Origin: an uncultured archaeon | Lineage (GTDB): Archaea; Aenigmatarchaeota; Aenigmatarchaeia; GW2011-AR5 | NCBI GenBank assembly: GCA_964373695.1 | Contig: CAYJVT010000002.1 | Location: forward strand, 1,020-65,019 | Direction: 5' to 3' | DNA length: 64,000 nt | Shown: positions 4,841-52,501 of the stretch, one piece after another | How the letters are laid out: the number at the start of each line of letters is the position of its first letter | Numbering within the stretch: position 1 is the first letter of the stretch | Made by a program: the position numbers and the translations under genes | Notes under the pieces: model-generated | Database searches by the model: none | Seen by the model: only the letters and a program-made list of their open reading frames with translations | What the model was told of the DNA's origin: nothing

Positions 4841-4943
4841 GCCGGCGTGGCACAATCTGGCACTGCGCTAGATAAAATTTAATTAGGCGAATCTCGAAAA
4901 CTAGTGTCCTTTGGACTTGCAGGTTCAAATCCTGCCGCCGGCG
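4841..4943 (+). tRNA. Intron-containing class-II tRNA (tentatively Ser, anticodon CGA)
   Basis: 7-bp acceptor GCCGGCG/CGCCGGC; T-arm GCAGG-TTCAAAT-CCTGC; 3-bp D-stem GCA/TGC with 11-nt D-loop; variable-arm hairpin GTCC-TTT-GGAC; discriminator G. 103 nt implies an intron of ~20 nt in the anticodon region. Exact splice sites not resolved. Confidence 0.75.
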
Positions 4944-4970
4944 CTTTTATCTATTTATTGTTAATCAATA

Positions 4971-5000
4971 GTTTTATATAGTTTTATATAGTTTTATATA
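4971..5000. repeat. 3 x 10-bp tandem repeat (GTTTTATATA), TATA-like
   Basis: Perfect tandem triplication directly upstream of the antitoxin ATG at 5013. Confidence 0.9.
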
Positions 5001-5012
5001 ACTATTATAGAT

Positions 5013-5204
5013 ATGGCAAAAACATCAATTCAGATAGAAAGCAGGACAAGAGACAGGCTCAAAGGCGTGGGAACAATGGAAGATACTTATGATTCACTTA
5101 TTGAAAGGCTTGTCAAGTTCTACGAAGAGGCTGTGAGCAATAATTATTTTGTGGAAACACAGCATAGGATAGCCAAGTCAGGCAGATTTGTGGGGCTGGA
5201 CTGA
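5013..5204 (+). CDS. Ribbon-helix-helix (CopG-like) antitoxin
   Basis: 63 aa. N-terminal beta-strand/helix pattern TSIQIESRTRDRLK is typical of RHH. Its stop overlaps the start of the downstream toxin. Confidence 0.65.
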   Translation: MAKTSIQIESRTRDRLKGVGTMEDTYDSLIERLVKFYEEAVSNNYFVETQHRIAKSGRFVGLD

Positions 5205-5488
5205 TGTGGAAAGTCCTTATTGAAAAGGGCGCTGTGGAGTATCTTGAATCCCTTGACCGACGCAGAATGAAAAACATAAAGGAATCGTTGCGCCTTCTGA
5301 AAGAATCTCCTTATCCATGCCAAGGAGCGGGCGACAAAAAAGAAATCAAAGGAACTTCGAAGAGCGCTTTCCGCATCCGGATCGGCGATTATAGGGCATT
5401 CTATGTCATAGAAGAAGGTGAAAAAACAGTGAAAATCACCGAAATAATGACGGCAGAAGCTGCACACAAGAAATACGGACAGCTATAA
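5204..5488 (+). CDS. RelE/ParE-family toxin
   Basis: 94 aa. C-terminal FRIRIGDYRAFYVIEE...VKITEI matches the RelE/ParE core. Genetically coupled to the upstream RHH gene. Confidence 0.7.
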   Translation: MWKVLIEKGAVEYLESLDRRRMKNIKESLRLLKESPYPCQGAGDKKEIKGTSKSAFRIRIGDYRAFYVIEEGEKTVKITEIMTAEAAHKKYGQL

Positions 5489-5495
5489 GCCAGGT

Positions 5496-49749: not shown

Positions 49750-49759
49750 AGGTGAAAAA

Positions 49760-51418
49760 ATGCCTACTATAGAAGTTTCGATGAAAGCCCTGGAAAAGCT
49801 TGCCGGAAGAAAAGTGAAGGAAAAAGATCTTGAGGCCGTGAAAGGGGAAATAGAAGAAACCGAAGGCGGCAAGGCAAAGATAGAAATAGGCGATACAAAC
49901 AGGCCTGATTTGTGGTGCGTCGAAGGGATAGCAAGGGTTCTCAGGGGAAAACGCTTCCAGAAACTTCCCGTCAAAAACAGCGGGAAAGAAATCATAGTCG
50001 ACAGGAAAATTCTTGGCATAAGACCTTTCATATCGGGCTTTGTCGTTAAAGGCGTGAATGTTGATGAGGAACTGCTTCTGGATATGATACAACTCCAGGA
50101 CAAACTTGATGAAAACTATGGGAAGAAGAGGAAAAAGATATCCATCGGCATATACAATTATGACATGATAAAATTCCCTGCGCATTACAAGGCCGTCAGC
50201 CCATCTCACAAGTTCGTGCCTCTTGGCCTTGACAAGCCTCTCACCATGAGAGATATATTGTCCAAACACCCCAAAGGTAGGGATTATGGATATATTGTTC
50301 GCGAGCACAAATTGTATCCGCTGCTTATCGACATGAAGGAAGATGTCCTCTCATTCCCACCAATAATAAACAGCAACTATCTCGGAAAGGTCAAGTTGGG
50401 AATGCAAAATCTTATGGTAGAAGTCACAGGAACCGACCAGAAATCCGTCCTTCTTGCTGCCAATATCTTTGCATATTCGCTTTATGACAGAGGAGCTAAT
50501 ATAGAGTCGATAACGACCAGATATCCGTCCACAACAAAGTTCGGGAGGTCAGTTACTTGTCCGTATGATTTCTGCCAGAAAATGTCATTCAACAGGAAAA
50601 ATGTGGAGAGTGTCCTTGGGATTGACCTGAAAAGCACGGAAATAAAGTCTCTGCTGGAGAAAATGCAATACGATGCTGAAATCTCCAATGATAAAGTAAT
50701 TGTTGTCATCCCCCCCTACAGAAATGACGTGATGCACTATACAGACGTGATAGAAGATATAGCAATAGCATACGGATACGGGAACTTCAAGGAATCTGGA
50801 ATTGAAAGCTTTACTGTCGGCAATCTAATGAAAGAGACACTTTTCACCGAGAATGTAAGAAGGGTTATGATAGGTATCGGATTTCAGGAAATAATGTCCG
50901 CGATACTTTCCAGCAAATCTGCCCTGTGTGATAAGATGAACACATCCTCAGAGCCACTGAAAATAGAAAATGTCATGTCAGAAAACTATTCGCATGTGAG
51001 GAGCTGGGTTCTACCAAGCATTCTTGCATGCCTGACGAAAAACATGCATAACGAATACCCGCAGAAGGTATTCGAGGTCGGGGAATGTGTGATTCGGGAC
51101 AAGAAATCATATACAGGAACAGTAACAATACAAAAAATAGCTGGCGCGATTTCAAGCGGAATTGCAGGCTATGAAGACATATCCTCGTGCATAGATGCTC
51201 TGCTTTGCGGCATCGGAGCAAAATACGAACTGAAGCTTTCGGTGCATCCCAGCTTTATAGAGGGCAGATGTGCCGACATATTAATCGGAGGGGATAAAGC
51301 CGGCATCGTAGGCGAAATACACCCCAAAGTGCTGAATAACTGGTCCATAGAAAAGCCGGTCGCGGCTTTTGAAGCTGATGTCAACTCCTTACTGAAAGCT
51401 TCCACTTCACGGGACTGA
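49760..51418 (+). CDS. pheT: Phenylalanyl-tRNA synthetase beta subunit (archaeal form)
   Basis: 552 aa immediately downstream of pheS. B3/4 and B5 domain pattern. Length typical for archaeal PheT. Confidence 0.9.
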   Translation: MPTIEVSMKALEKLAGRKVKEKDLEAVKGEIEETEGGKAKIEIGDTNRPDLWCVEGIARVLRGKRFQKLPVKNSGKEIIVDRKILGIRPFISGFVVKGVNVDEELLLDMIQLQDKLDENYGKKRKKISIGIYNYDMIKFPAHYKAVSPSHKFVPLGLDKPLTMRDILSKHPKGRDYGYIVREHKLYPLLIDMKEDVLSFPPIINSNYLGKVKLGMQNLMVEVTGTDQKSVLLAANIFAYSLYDRGANIESITTRYPSTTKFGRSVTCPYDFCQKMSFNRKNVESVLGIDLKSTEIKSLLEKMQYDAEISNDKVIVVIPPYRNDVMHYTDVIEDIAIAYGYGNFKESGIESFTVGNLMKETLFTENVRRVMIGIGFQEIMSAILSSKSALCDKMNTSSEPLKIENVMSENYSHVRSWVLPSILACLTKNMHNEYPQKVFEVGECVIRDKKSYTGTVTIQKIAGAISSGIAGYEDISSCIDALLCGIGAKYELKLSVHPSFIEGRCADILIGGDKAGIVGEIHPKVLNNWSIEKPVAAFEADVNSLLKASTSRD

Positions 51419-51460
51419 TATCGTTCTCGCCGCGCCTTTTCTTCCTTTTCCTTGTAGGTG

Positions 51461-52213
51461 TCATCTTAACACGAACCTATACCAAGGCCTGTTTTCTTTG
51501 TATTCAACGCCGGCAATGCGTCCGGCGAGCCTTCTTATTTCCCTGCTTGCAGGGGATTTCGGCGAGTCCAGAACTACAGGCTTGCGCCTTGCGATGGACT
51601 TCTGGACTTCAATGCGCTCAGGAATCCTTGCCAGTATATCTGTATCTTCCAGCATATTCTTTATGTCTTCCATGCGCATCTCGTGCGGCTTGTTCTTCAC
51701 TCTGTTTACGACCGCACCTGTTATCTTGGTTCCGAGCTGTTCCGCCAGTTTATACGCTTTGAGAGCGTCTGTAACTGACGTCAATTCGGGGTTCGTTATG
51801 AGAACCATTTCGTCTGCTGCCTCCATGCTGGAAAGAGTCTCCTTGCCCAGTCCGGCGGCGGAATCCAGCAGGACTATATCAGCGGTCCCCAGAAGATCCA
51901 AAAGAACATTCGGCAGGTCCCTTGAATCAGTCCCCCTCAGGTCCCTGAGCGAGAGCCCTGCGGGGATTATCCTGACGCCACTGTCGTGGTAATAAATGGC
52001 ATCCTTTATCGGGACGGAGCCCTTCAGAACATCATGGAGTGTGGTAGGATAAAGCGGCATACCGAAATGTATCCCTATGTTGGGCGTCGTCAGGTTGGCA
52101 TCCACGACCACGACGCTCTTTCCCATGGATGACATTGCAACGCCGAGATTCGAAACTAGGGTGGTTTTTCCGACTCCGCCCTTCCCGGAAACGCAAGCTA
52201 TTATTCTTGTCAT
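51461..52213 (-). CDS. minD: MinD/ParA-family cell-division ATPase
   Basis: Deviant Walker A GKGGVGKTT at the N-terminus. 250 aa. Confidence 0.85.
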   Translation of the reverse strand: MTRIIACVSGKGGVGKTTLVSNLGVAMSSMGKSVVVVDANLTTPNIGIHFGMPLYPTTLHDVLKGSVPIKDAIYYHDSGVRIIPAGLSLRDLRGTDSRDLPNVLLDLLGTADIVLLDSAAGLGKETLSSMEAADEMVLITNPELTSVTDALKAYKLAEQLGTKITGAVVNRVKNKPHEMRMEDIKNMLEDTDILARIPERIEVQKSIARRKPVVLDSPKSPASREIRRLAGRIAGVEYKENRPWYRFVLR

Positions 52214-52367
52214 ACCACACCTAGAGATAATTATTGCCTCGGCGGTTTAAAAGCTTGAAAATGCTGCGTTTCAGATTTCACTCTACCTTACAAAAAAACG
52301 TCTCTGGCCGCATTGCGGGACAAGCCGGTCTGTTATTTATCTGTTTTACTGTATAAAACATTTACAA

Positions 52368-52501
52368 GGGCGCGTAGCTCAGCTTGGATAGAGCACCTTT
52401 TATGAAAGGCCTTCTTTCATAAGTGTCGGCCTTCTAAGCAGGGGGTCGCGGGTTCGAAAGCTGAAGCGCTAAGGCGTTGGCCGATTTTCCCGTCGCGCCC
52501 A
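52368..52501 (+). tRNA. Intron-containing tRNA with an insert in the T-loop/T-stem 3' side plus ~30 nt extra in the anticodon region; isotype undetermined (CAU possible)
   Basis: Acceptor GGGCGCG/CGCGCCC; D-arm GCTC-AGCTTGGATA-GAGC; T-stem GCGGG + loop TTCGAAA, then a 29-nt insert GCTGAAGCGCTAAGGCGTTGGCCGATTTT before the 3' T-stem CCCGT; discriminator A. 134 nt total. Confidence 0.75.

Follow-up and report, generated by a model that had tools for sequence, protein, structure and literature searches.

Nine tRNA genes interrupted by predicted bulge-helix-bulge introns, and a recurrent structured element, in a stretch of Aenigmarchaeota DNA

Results

The tRNA genes and their interruptions

The window considered here, a 64-kb stretch of DNA from an Aenigmarchaeota MAG, contains exactly nine tRNA genes, none of which is colinear with its mature product. 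The sequence was scanned twice for a T-arm combined with a 7-bp acceptor stem, first strictly and then with an interrupted T-loop tolerated, and the scans returned precisely the nine loci proposed in an initial annotation of the sequence; the sole extra match (32778-32985) looks like a chance occurrence within an ORF. No uninterrupted tRNA gene was recovered from the window by these scans, by ARAGORN or by the Rfam tRNA model. On the unspliced window ARAGORN finds 2 of the 9 genes, and the Rfam model 3-4, each with large insertions. Once 16 inserts of 12-108 nt (one to three per gene) are excised, the cloverleaf is restored and ARAGORN recognizes each of the nine products as a full-length tRNA: Ser-CGA, Ser-UGA, Gly-GCC, Leu-CAA, Val-CAC, Ile-UAU, Asn-GUU, Phe-GAA and Arg-UCU. 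The genes are listed below with their inserts, given as predicted introns (H, central helix of the junction; h and h', flanking helices, the latter within the intron).

4841-4943, + strand: tRNA-Ser(CGA), class II; precursor 103 nt, mature 83 nt
4872-4891: Ser(CGA) intron, 20 nt, position 30/31; H = CGCT/GGCG (4 bp), h' = 3 bp
5630-5853, + strand: tRNA-Ser(UGA); precursor 224 nt, mature 87 nt; spliced product called as Ser-UGA
5647-5754: Ser(UGA) intron 1, 108 nt, D-loop after position 17; H 4 bp
5794-5822: Ser(UGA) intron 2, 29 nt, variable-arm loop; H 4 bp, h = 5, h' = 5
6697-6786, + strand: tRNA-Gly(GCC); precursor 90 nt, mature 71 nt
6741-6759: Gly(GCC) intron, 19 nt, position 45/46; H = GTCG/CGAC (4 bp), h' = 3 bp
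8159-8309, - strand: tRNA-Leu(CAA); precursor 151 nt, mature 86 nt; three introns; spliced product called as Leu-CAA
8257-8287: Leu(CAA) intron 1, 31 nt, D-loop 20a/20b; H 3/4, h' = 10
8224-8245: Leu(CAA) intron 2, 22 nt, position 30/31; H 4/4
8205-8216: Leu(CAA) intron 3, 12 nt, position 37/38; H 4/4, no h'
26510-26595, - strand: tRNA-Val(CAC); precursor 86 nt, mature 72 nt
26567-26580: Val(CAC) intron, 14 nt, D-loop 15/16; H = GTCT/GGAC (4 bp), h = 0, h' = 2 bp
27209-27368, - strand: tRNA-Ile(UAU); precursor 160 nt, mature 74 nt
27277-27330: Ile(UAU) intron 1, 54 nt, canonical position 37/38; H 4/4, h = 5
27237-27268: Ile(UAU) intron 2, 32 nt, position 45/46; H 3/4, h' = 6
44633-44789, + strand: tRNA-Asn(GUU); precursor 157 nt, 90-nt insert in the D-loop
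44649-44717: Asn intron 1 (tentative model), 69 nt, position 16/17; H 3/4
44718-44722: Asn micro-exon AGGTA (tentative model)
44723-44735: Asn intron 2 (tentative model), 13 nt; H 3/4, weakly supported, with no convincing motif
44880-45011, + strand: tRNA-Phe(GAA); precursor 132 nt, mature 74 nt
44889-44918: Phe(GAA) intron 1, 30 nt, position 9/10; H 4/4, h' = 9 bp
44938-44965: Phe(GAA) intron 2, 28 nt, position 27/28; H 4/4, h' = 8 bp
52368-52501, + strand: tRNA-Arg(UCU); precursor 134 nt, mature 75 nt
52399-52428: Arg(UCU) intron 1, 30 nt, position 29/30; H 4/4, h' = 10
52459-52487: Arg(UCU) intron 2, 29 nt, T-loop 59/60; H 3/4 (TTCG/CGAT), h = 5, h' = 5

On the unspliced sequence the Rfam matches themselves display the interruptions: tRNA-Gly scores 58.9 bits with a 20-nt insertion past the anticodon stem, tRNA-Val 57.5 bits with a D-loop longer by 14 nt, and tRNA-Ile 45.6 bits with insertions of 55 nt and 33 nt. 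The Ser(CGA) gene reaches 38.7 bits under lax filters, and ARAGORN identifies its spliced form as Ser-CGA. A Cys(aca) call by ARAGORN on the unspliced Val gene is an artefact caused by the insert.

Only two inserts occupy the canonical 37/38 site; the other 14 are spread over positions 9/10, 15/16, 27/28, 29/30, 30/31 and 45/46, the D-loop, the variable arm and T-loop position 59/60. The scans and the ARAGORN calls on spliced products bear out the initial annotation in its central claim of nine tRNA genes, every one of them split, and its acceptor/T-arm pairs do yield cloverleafs once the inserts are removed. Its precursor lengths and coordinates recur identically, save that 152 nt becomes 151, 159 becomes 160 and the start at 27210 becomes 27209. 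The D-loop inserts it placed in Asn, Val and a gene it termed Leu-like (that at 5630, here reassigned to Ser(UGA)) hold, as do the variable-loop insert of Gly (45/46), those of Phe near positions 7-9 and 27/28 (here 9/10 and 27/28) and the anticodon-loop inserts, found in the genes at 27209 and 8159. The T-loop insert of the gene at 52368 also stands, to which we add a second intron at 29/30 and the identity Arg-UCU. Two or more introns per gene had been suggested, and Leu-CAA (8159) indeed has three. The lineages it named included some DPANN, which fits, and Micrarchaeota, which does not, the organism being an Aenigmarchaeota MAG.

Bulge-helix-bulge motifs at the junctions

A perfect 4-bp central helix of the bulge-helix-bulge (BHB) motif is present in the exact register at 11 of the 16 junctions, and three of the four pairs form in the other five. 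The background per register is 2.1% for four pairs and 15.9% for three or better, and the 11 perfect H helices stand against 0.55 expected (n = 16; binomial upper bound 4e-9), a statistic that is partly circular because the BHB rule helped to select some of the splice sites, namely those of Asn and those for which more than one register fitted the cloverleaf. On either side of the central helix the precursors can form a 3-nt bulge, and most junctions also have a helix internal to the intron, which reaches 8-10 bp in Phe, Arg and Leu. Flanking helices are nearly absent at some junctions, as in Val (h = 0, h' = 2) and the 12-nt Leu intron, which has no h'. The exact splice sites within tRNA-Asn are uncertain, and this gene could be decaying.

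Constant exons and shifting introns among relatives

Intron positions turn over quickly among close relatives, with the exons unchanged: orthologs in related Aenigmarchaeota assemblies have identical exons, and their introns lie elsewhere or are missing. Intron-free orthologous stretches confirm the junctions in Phe, Arg, Ser-CGA, Ser-UGA (D-loop), Asn (outer limits) and Ile (V-loop). Thus, the Ser-CGA ortholog of the relative L089 reads CCAGTCTCGAA (positions 27-37) without interruption, a Ser-type gene of L141 has an uninterrupted D-loop (GGCGGAGCTTGGTCCAAC), and the syntenic Ile orthologs of L002 and L003 keep the loop CTTATA|..|A and lack the V-loop insert. The Phe orthologs of L082 and L083 are 74-nt genes with no intron; those of L081 and L084 have an intron in the D-loop instead, and that of L085 at 37/38. 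The Arg orthologs of L081, L082 and L083 possess an intact T-loop (TTCGAAT) and introns at other sites. The Asn exons are those of the L081 and L085 genes, where the D-loop is intact (AGCAGGTA), as it also is in L082.

Other introns are shared. In L089 the introns homologous to those of Ser(UGA) show compensatory changes in their internal hairpins, the intron of the Gly gene is shared but differs in its hairpin loop, and the Leu ortholog combines an identical 86-nt mature sequence with the same three intron sites (lengths 33/39/41); one tRNA of this relative has four introns.

Excision that restores cloverleafs, enrichment of the helix register, and orthologs with the same exons and shifted or absent introns together support the reading that the inserts behave as archaeal BHB introns, which would be removed by splicing.

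A recurrent structured element

A structured element of approximately 50 nt is found repeatedly, as an intron at various tRNA positions and also outside tRNAs. The window has two copies:

6787-6863, + strand: element copy 1, directly 3' of tRNA-Gly
44649-44695, + strand: element copy 2, forming the 5' portion of the intron in the tRNA-Asn D-loop

After the first, positions 6847-6863 repeat the Gly 3' end in degenerate form (AAATCCAGGCAGGCGCA), and the same succession of tRNA-Gly, element and degenerate repeat is found in L089. The core comprises a covarying helix (RCMAA/TTKGY), a hairpin and an invariant stretch, GGTC..GAACCCCAA. Rfam 15 gave no match at 6787-6846 or 44649-44717, either at the gathering score or at E <= 1. 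Overall there are 53 distinct copies, among them those in the D-loop of the window Asn gene (and at the same site in L200, with the same H helix CTCA/GGAG), the T-loops of L081 Asn, L089 Ser-CGA and an L006 gene, and both the D-stem and the T-loop of L089 Ser-UGA; further copies lie right after tRNA 3' ends, and others directly adjoin start codons in divergent housekeeping genes. Every copy embedded in a tRNA has sense orientation and a host-matched tetranucleotide: within the last ~6 nt of the element, 4 nt are complementary to the host exon immediately upstream of the 5' splice site (CGAA-TTCG in the T-loop, TGGA-TCTA, GGAG-CTCA), a pairing that restores a BHB at each site the element occupies.

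Similar intron sequences at different positions and in different tRNAs, the hallmark of transposed introns, are thus displayed by this element, and at the level of sequence these comparisons show that a portable structured element makes up at least one of the intron families. It is conceivable, at somewhat less than an even chance, that the Aenigmarchaeota possess an undescribed family of portable tRNA introns, each a core plus a host-matched 'address', processed by an EndA devoid of the canonical catalytic lysine. The 4-nt address at the 3' end (e.g. CGAA for the universal T-loop TTCG) would rebuild a BHB at almost any tRNA position. Such a family, if real, would explain the saturation of the lineage with non-canonical introns and offer a concrete system for intron gain.

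The splicing endonuclease

A gene for a tRNA-splicing endonuclease is situated between tRNA-Phe and a CBS-domain gene:

45142-45726, + strand: EndA, tRNA-splicing endonuclease; 194 aa, a single alpha-type subunit

Its N-terminal and catalytic C-terminal domains match the Pfam models tRNA_int_endo_N and tRNA_int_endo (PF02778, PF01974), and the best solved relative is the alpha4 EndA of M. jannaschii (1a79, E = 2e-35). Between the catalytic Tyr and His lies a basic 6-residue insert, LKKGPK, whose location matches that of the insert in N. equitans alpha subunit 3iey_A (window EndA GVQLKKGPKSAKEH; M. jannaschii GANID------KEH; N. equitans GVIPKKGKRSEREH). Neither the insert nor the motif AHNIRARMLW varies among 15 homologs. 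The Tyr-His-Lys catalytic triad (Y115/H125/K156 in M. jannaschii EndA) is incomplete: Tyr and His are present, and the Lys position is Ala171 in four independent alignments to solved EndAs and in 15/15 homologs, with Arg170 and Arg172 on either side (motif RAR). No second EndA-like ORF was found within the window, and an RtcB ligase gave no match among the 30 window ORFs scanned.

Going by the description in Kaneta et al. 2018 (PMC5829648), the insert looks like their 'L3' class; the paper associates L3-loop EndAs with a greater degree of disruption of the tRNA genes in DPANN. The suggestion that so many non-canonical introns require an endonuclease of relaxed specificity agrees with the in-window EndA bearing this insert, insofar as its predicted activity and specificity are correct.

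Discussion

Origin and removal of the inserts

We regard it as very probable that in this DPANN genome all the tRNA genes seen are split by one to three protein-spliced BHB introns (16, of which 14 are non-canonical). Each exon-intron junction of the precursor can fold into a central helix of 4 bp, or of 3 bp and a mismatch; EndA (45142-45726) would cut in both bulges, and an RtcB-type ligase would presumably join the exons. In being of alpha type and in having a basic insert close to its active site, EndA resembles the DPANN enzymes tied to relaxed specificity.

It is highly improbable that we are dealing with nine decaying pseudogenes or with assembly artefacts and that intact functional tRNA genes lie elsewhere. 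The window does come from a MAG, the tRNA-Asn insert has weak splice motifs and the relic of the Gly 3' end testifies to rearrangements, but the exons are (nearly) identical in independent assemblies from other samples in which the inserts differ, synteny with housekeeping genes is maintained, there is a strong enrichment of BHB motifs, and nine out of nine pseudogenes each giving a perfect cloverleaf on excision is implausible. Still less credible is removal by another route, such as group I/II self-splicing, or retention of the inserts as expansions of the mature tRNA. Although there are reports of archaeal group I introns (PMC6125680), inserts of 12-108 nt are far too short for group I/II ribozymes, and no Rfam match in the window is to a ribozyme or an intron family; the tRNA fold would not survive inserts kept in its T-loop, in its anticodon stem or at 9/10.

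A weightier proposal, which we nevertheless deem unlikely, holds that the inserts are primarily MITE-like mobile elements at the DNA level, the tRNA copies persisting as they can be excised from RNA, so that 'intron' would describe their tolerance and not their origin. The occurrence of one family in tRNAs at several positions, after tRNA 3' ends and at housekeeping start codons speaks in its favor. Yet this family accounts for just 2 of the 16 window inserts, most of the remaining introns are unrelated short hairpins, and the tRNA-embedded copies are all in sense orientation with the host-matched tetranucleotide. Moreover, a MITE-like origin would add to BHB splicing, not replace it. With BHB splicing as the preferred reading, the intron-saturated tRNA genes are real, and they are a further example of a phenomenon that is already known.

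Significance

Most of these genes escape standard tRNA finders (ARAGORN, Rfam), and because interrupted genes are missed, Aenigmarchaeota genomes appear short of many tRNAs; this apparent loss distorts both completeness estimates and inferences of host dependence. The locus is a compact set of 16 substrates adjoining their own endonuclease gene, and hence suits the question of how an alpha-type EndA with a basic insert and no usual catalytic lysine handles relaxed BHB motifs. Shifting introns on constant exons, together with a specific mobile element, make the question of intron gain and loss addressable with real intermediates.

Comparison with known systems

The canonical archaeal arrangement is a strict hBHBh' motif at 37/38, with the anticodon stem as h, and is represented here by the Ile (27277-27330) and Leu (8205-8216) introns; among the 14 found elsewhere, one flanking helix is absent or H has 3 bp in many cases. 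The Thermoproteales (Sugahara 2008; Fujishima 2010, via PMC4033280) are described in that review as having short BHB introns at many non-canonical positions, with a maximum of three per gene, relaxed BHB motifs and similar introns across tRNAs and positions ('intron transposition'). The window matches them in its short BHB introns at many sites, at most three per gene, in similar introns across positions and in relaxed motifs. It differs in its host, which is a DPANN archaeon of the Aenigmarchaeota and not a member of TACK, and in its EndA, whose single alpha-type subunit bears its insert in the C-terminal domain, as against an (alpha-beta)2 enzyme with a Crenarchaea-specific loop. In the 64 kb, 9/9 genes are interrupted, and the four-intron tRNA of the relative L089 exceeds the maximum of three given in the review's account (PMC4033280).

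The DPANN archaea of Kaneta et al. 2018 (PMC5829648), as the paper's account of them goes, share with the window an alpha-type EndA close to M. jannaschii alpha4, the insert found in N. equitans and disrupted tRNAs. The Aenigmarchaeota are not named in its account of four newly analysed DPANN genomes, and its remarks on tRNA content note incomplete sets without describing the genes present. Unlike the enzymes described there, the Aenigmarchaeota EndA has Ala for the catalytic Lys, in the motif RAR. Finally, ARMAN-2 (Ca. Micrarchaeum; Fujishima 2011, PMC3239211) is likewise a DPANN member with non-canonical and multiple tRNA introns, an ultrasmall archaeon equipped with a broad-specificity epsilon2 EndA; in that enzyme three units are fused into one protein of 395 aa, which has an L2/ASL loop, whereas the window EndA is a single unit of 194 aa.

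Detection of the interrupted tRNA genes

Standard tools recovered the tRNA genes of the window incompletely. ARAGORN found only two, and the Rfam tRNA model retrieved three at its gathering score, all with large insertions; lax filters added a fourth (4841-4943, 38.7 bits), which also bears a large insertion, and a partial fifth of 26.9 bits, below the gathering score. A strict scan looked for a T-stem of 5 bp closing a TTCRA loop and, after it, a 7-nt acceptor strand with its complement upstream; it recovered eight of the nine loci proposed in the initial annotation, and a second scan tolerating an interrupted T-loop recovered all nine. 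The latter also gave one extra match (32778-32985), which lies inside a T2SSE ORF and looks like a chance hit. Precursor lengths agree with the earlier ones to within 1 nt, and the claim that every tRNA gene is interrupted holds, with no uninterrupted tRNA gene across the 64-kb window. CCA is encoded in none of the nine genes.

Interrupted tRNA genes of the window: start (reverse-strand loci marked -), tRNA, precursor length, predicted intron sites
4841, Ser-CGA, 103 nt: 30/31
5630, Ser-UGA, 224 nt: D-loop (108 nt), variable arm
6697, Gly-GCC, 90 nt: 45/46
8159 (-), Leu-CAA, 151 nt: D-loop, 30/31, 37/38
26510 (-), Val-CAC, 86 nt: 15/16
27209 (-), Ile-UAU, 160 nt: 37/38, 45/46
44633, Asn-GUU, 157 nt: D-loop, tentatively two introns flanking a 5-nt micro-exon
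44880, Phe-GAA, 132 nt: 9/10, 27/28
52368, Arg-UCU, 134 nt: 29/30, T-loop 59/60

Intron anatomy and BHB motifs

The 16 inserts, only two of them canonical, were delimited by reading each locus and applying archaeal bulge-helix-bulge (BHB) geometry. In this geometry, derived from the canonical 37/38 intron, the central helix H is formed by two tetranucleotides, one ending 2 nt ahead of the 5′ cut and the other 2 nt ahead of the 3′ cut; each bulge has 3 nt and is cut behind its second nucleotide. Excision of the 16 inserts yields nine products that ARAGORN calls full-length tRNAs. A perfect 4-bp H is present in exact register at 11 of the 16 junctions, and the other five have three of the four pairs. 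In random registers of the same sequences a perfect H occurs in 2.1% of cases and one of at least three pairs in 15.9%. With equivalent registers taken into account, chance would give 0.55 perfect helices against the 11 found (binomial upper bound 4e-9), a statistic that is only partly independent, because the BHB rule helped to pick the register at some junctions. Internal helices of 8-10 bp are seen in the introns of tRNA-Phe and tRNA-Arg and in the D-loop intron of tRNA-Leu. From these features of the sequence we infer that the inserts are spliced out.

As a judge of all strict BHB candidate combinations ARAGORN proved too permissive, accepting thousands of "tRNAs" for long precursors, and splice sites were ranked instead by cloverleaf reasoning and orthologs. 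For the T-loop intron of tRNA-Arg, two registers in which H has 4 bp (precursor positions 90-117 and 93-115) would leave a T-loop of at least 8 nt, and were rejected because three orthologs (L081-L083) have an unbroken T-loop, TTCGAAT. For tRNA-Asn a good BHB was obtained neither with a single 84-nt intron, with its TACAAA sliding ambiguity, nor with a micro-exon TGGATA, nor with nested excisions. We tentatively propose a micro-exon AGGTA, guided by how the D-loop reads in relatives and by L200, a metagenome locus in which the recurrent element described below occupies this D-loop position and forms the CTCA/GGAG helix of our model. In this model H has three of four pairs at both junctions and the second intron lacks a supporting helix; the mature D-loop might be AGUAGGUAAA, AGUAGGUA or neither.

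Orthologous tRNA genes in relatives

Thermosome and splicing endonuclease (EndA) relationships place the window in the Aenigmarchaeota (DPANN), and its named relatives, at up to 87% identity (about 73-87% among the matches listed), are annotated as Candidatus Aenigmarchaeota. Several assemblies share the gene order surrounding the tRNAs, so that orthologous tRNA genes can be read. The tRNA-Phe gene lacks introns in L082 and L083 (74 nt); its intron is in the D-loop in L081 and L084, and at 37/38 in L085. The mature L081 sequence differs from that predicted for the window by one substitution. In tRNA-Arg, with its unbroken T-loop in L081-L083, introns lie at 22/23, in the anticodon loop, at 38/39, in the D-loop or at 30/31. 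The intron of tRNA-Asn lies in the T-loop in L081, at 30/31 in L082, in the D-loop in L083 and at 22/23 in L084-L086, and its D-loop is intact, reading AGCAGGTA or AGTAGGTA, in four of these. The mature tRNA-Leu of L089 is identical to that of the window at 86 of 86 positions and has introns at the same three sites, their lengths being 33/39/41 against 31/22/12 in the window. At the window's intron sites there is no interruption in the tRNA-Ser-CGA of L089, nor in a Ser-type D-loop of L141 at the site of the 108-nt intron. The large D-loop intron and the variable-arm intron of tRNA-Ser are homologous between the window and L089, with hairpins showing compensatory changes.

The exons are fixed and the inserts mobile and structurally constrained, a combination that, as judged from these sequence comparisons, excludes assembly artefacts and pseudogenes in eight or more of the nine genes. 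The tRNA-Ser-UGA ortholog of L089 (reverse strand, about 8476-9327; precursor of 398 nt) has four introns, in the D-loop, on the 3′ side of the D-stem, in the variable arm and in the T-loop, two of which are copies of the recurrent element.

Two further observations concern individual genes. The 108-nt D-loop intron of tRNA-Ser-UGA (5647-5754) is conserved in L089 (109 nt), with invariant blocks (CATGCTCAAGGTATGA and ATGACTA..GCGTCTC) and covarying hairpins; C/D-box motifs (UGAUGA, CUGA) were not seen in it by eye, and it may encode a functional RNA. Upstream of the thermosome gene, the tRNA at 27209-27368 (reverse strand) retains the Ile anticodon UAU in relatives (L002, 7704-7830; L003, 552-677). 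Use of tRNA-Ile(UAU) in place of the agmatidine-modified CAU form is known from Nanoarchaeum and Korarchaeum.

A recurrent element in introns and at gene boundaries

The D-loop insert of tRNA-Asn opens with ~47 nt (from 44649) that recur almost unchanged immediately after the tRNA-Gly discriminator (from 6787). This structured module of ~50 nt recurs widely, with at least 53 distinct copies over all sequences compared; a metagenome scan with a degenerate 19-mer gave at least 120 loci, and the AATCCC signature lies upstream in 56 of the 124 19-mer matches listed. No Rfam model matches it.

Copies of the recurrent element
Window: 6787-6846; 44649-44695
L081: 9689-9758
L006: 12565
L089: three intron copies and one 3′ of tRNA-Gly
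Metagenome loci L091-L209: 50-odd

The element consists of RCMAA-TCCC, a hairpin, GGTC-TTKGY-GAACCCCAA, a variable stretch, GGATTKG and a 4-nt host-matching tract. Its 5′ RCMAA pairs with the internal TTKGY, fully so in 51 of the 53 copies examined, and with covariation across these (pair 1, A-T in 31 and G-C in 20; pair 3, C-G in 26 and A-T in 25). In copies that have GGATTKG, the 3′ partner of the 5′ end, the tetranucleotide behind it is complementary to host exon sequence immediately 5′ of the cut, so that CGAA pairs with the T-loop TTCG, TGGA with the D-arm TCTA, and GGAG with CTCA. The element constitutes the T-loop intron of the L081 tRNA-Asn, which has a perfect BHB (H TTCG/CGAA; flanking helix h′ CCAATC/GATTGG), as well as those of the L089 tRNA-Ser-CGA and of L006.

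Outside introns, several copies directly follow tRNA 3′ ends, and seven adjoin the ATG of a divergent housekeeping gene encoding ribosomal proteins, an OB-fold protein or a peptidase. The 5′ ends of these seven (L091, L118, L136, L150, L180, L186 and L209) lie 0-1 nt from the ATG, and the copies run on into GGGGATCTTCAAGACC, complementary to the element core. In the window, the copy after tRNA-Gly is followed by a 17-nt repeat (6847-6863) of the 3′ end of that gene (6770-6786), 60 nt downstream and with one mismatch, and L089 has the same arrangement. We read this repeat as the likely fossil of the displaced 3′ exon of a former T-loop intron, left by loss or rearrangement. Separately, 51 of the 53 copies examined have a T-run behind the 5′ CCC exactly as long as the A-run that follows the downstream CCCC (n = 2-5), a three-way co-variation that includes the A-run of the hairpin and suggests alternative pairing or a base-triple.

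The tRNA-splicing endonuclease

The EndA ORF (45142-45726) lies directly downstream of tRNA-Phe and encodes a single alpha-type unit of 194 residues with the Pfam N-terminal and catalytic domains. Its nearest solved relative is the alpha4 enzyme of M. jannaschii (1a79, E = 2e-35), relative to which it has a 6-residue basic insert (GVQLKKGPKSAKEH) between the catalytic Tyr and His. The insert matches the N. equitans alpha subunit in site and length, and the ARMAN-2 enzyme also has extra residues there. An unexpected feature is an Ala at the position of the catalytic Lys (K156 of M. jannaschii), in the motif AHNIRARMLW (RAR, residues 170-172). Both this motif and the insert (LKKGPK) are invariant in 15 Aenigmarchaeota homologs, and Arg172 or an insert lysine is a candidate substitute for the missing Lys. 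The window has no second EndA-like ORF, and none of the 30 window ORFs scanned matched a joining ligase.

Kaneta et al. 2018 (PMC5829648) describe, for the C-terminal region of EndA, a "Nanoarchaea/ARMAN-2 specific loop" (L3), to which the insert would correspond, and relate incomplete tRNA sets in such genomes to undetected disrupted genes, a description that the window fits.

Other genes of the window

Topoisomerase VI subunits B (38650-41811) and A (41822-44506) both contain LAGLIDADG homing-endonuclease inteins; no inteins interrupt the orthologs in L081-L083, L085 and L086, where subunit A has 359-361 residues versus 894. The ORF at 11950-17034 (1694 aa) gives only faint matches to Ig-like, PKD and SprB-repeat domains and a weak lysozyme-like match, and probably encodes a large surface protein. 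L088 has a counterpart of 1603 aa close to its Pelota gene. At 2567-3520 (+) an ATP-cone domain and an Mrr-type restriction endonuclease domain occur together in one ORF, a pairing also present in L089.

Relation to known systems

For Thermoproteales it is established that tRNA genes can hold multiple non-canonical introns, with a maximum of three in one gene, and that similar introns can occupy different sites ("intron transposition"). N. equitans, Korarchaeum and ARMAN-1/2 also figure among the archaea with multiple tRNA introns (PMC4033280). Crenarchaeota and ARMAN-2 are known to have EndAs of broad specificity with specific loops, and such enzymes have been suggested for other DPANN as well (PMC5829648; PMC3239211). 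Our literature search returned no paper specific to tRNA introns of Aenigmarchaeota. The interrupted tRNA genes of the window are a real, rather extreme case of an established phenomenon. Possibly new are the portable element with its host address, an EndA without the catalytic Lys, and the tRNA-Ser of L089, whose four introns exceed the maximum of three per archaeal tRNA stated in a 2014 review (PMC4033280).
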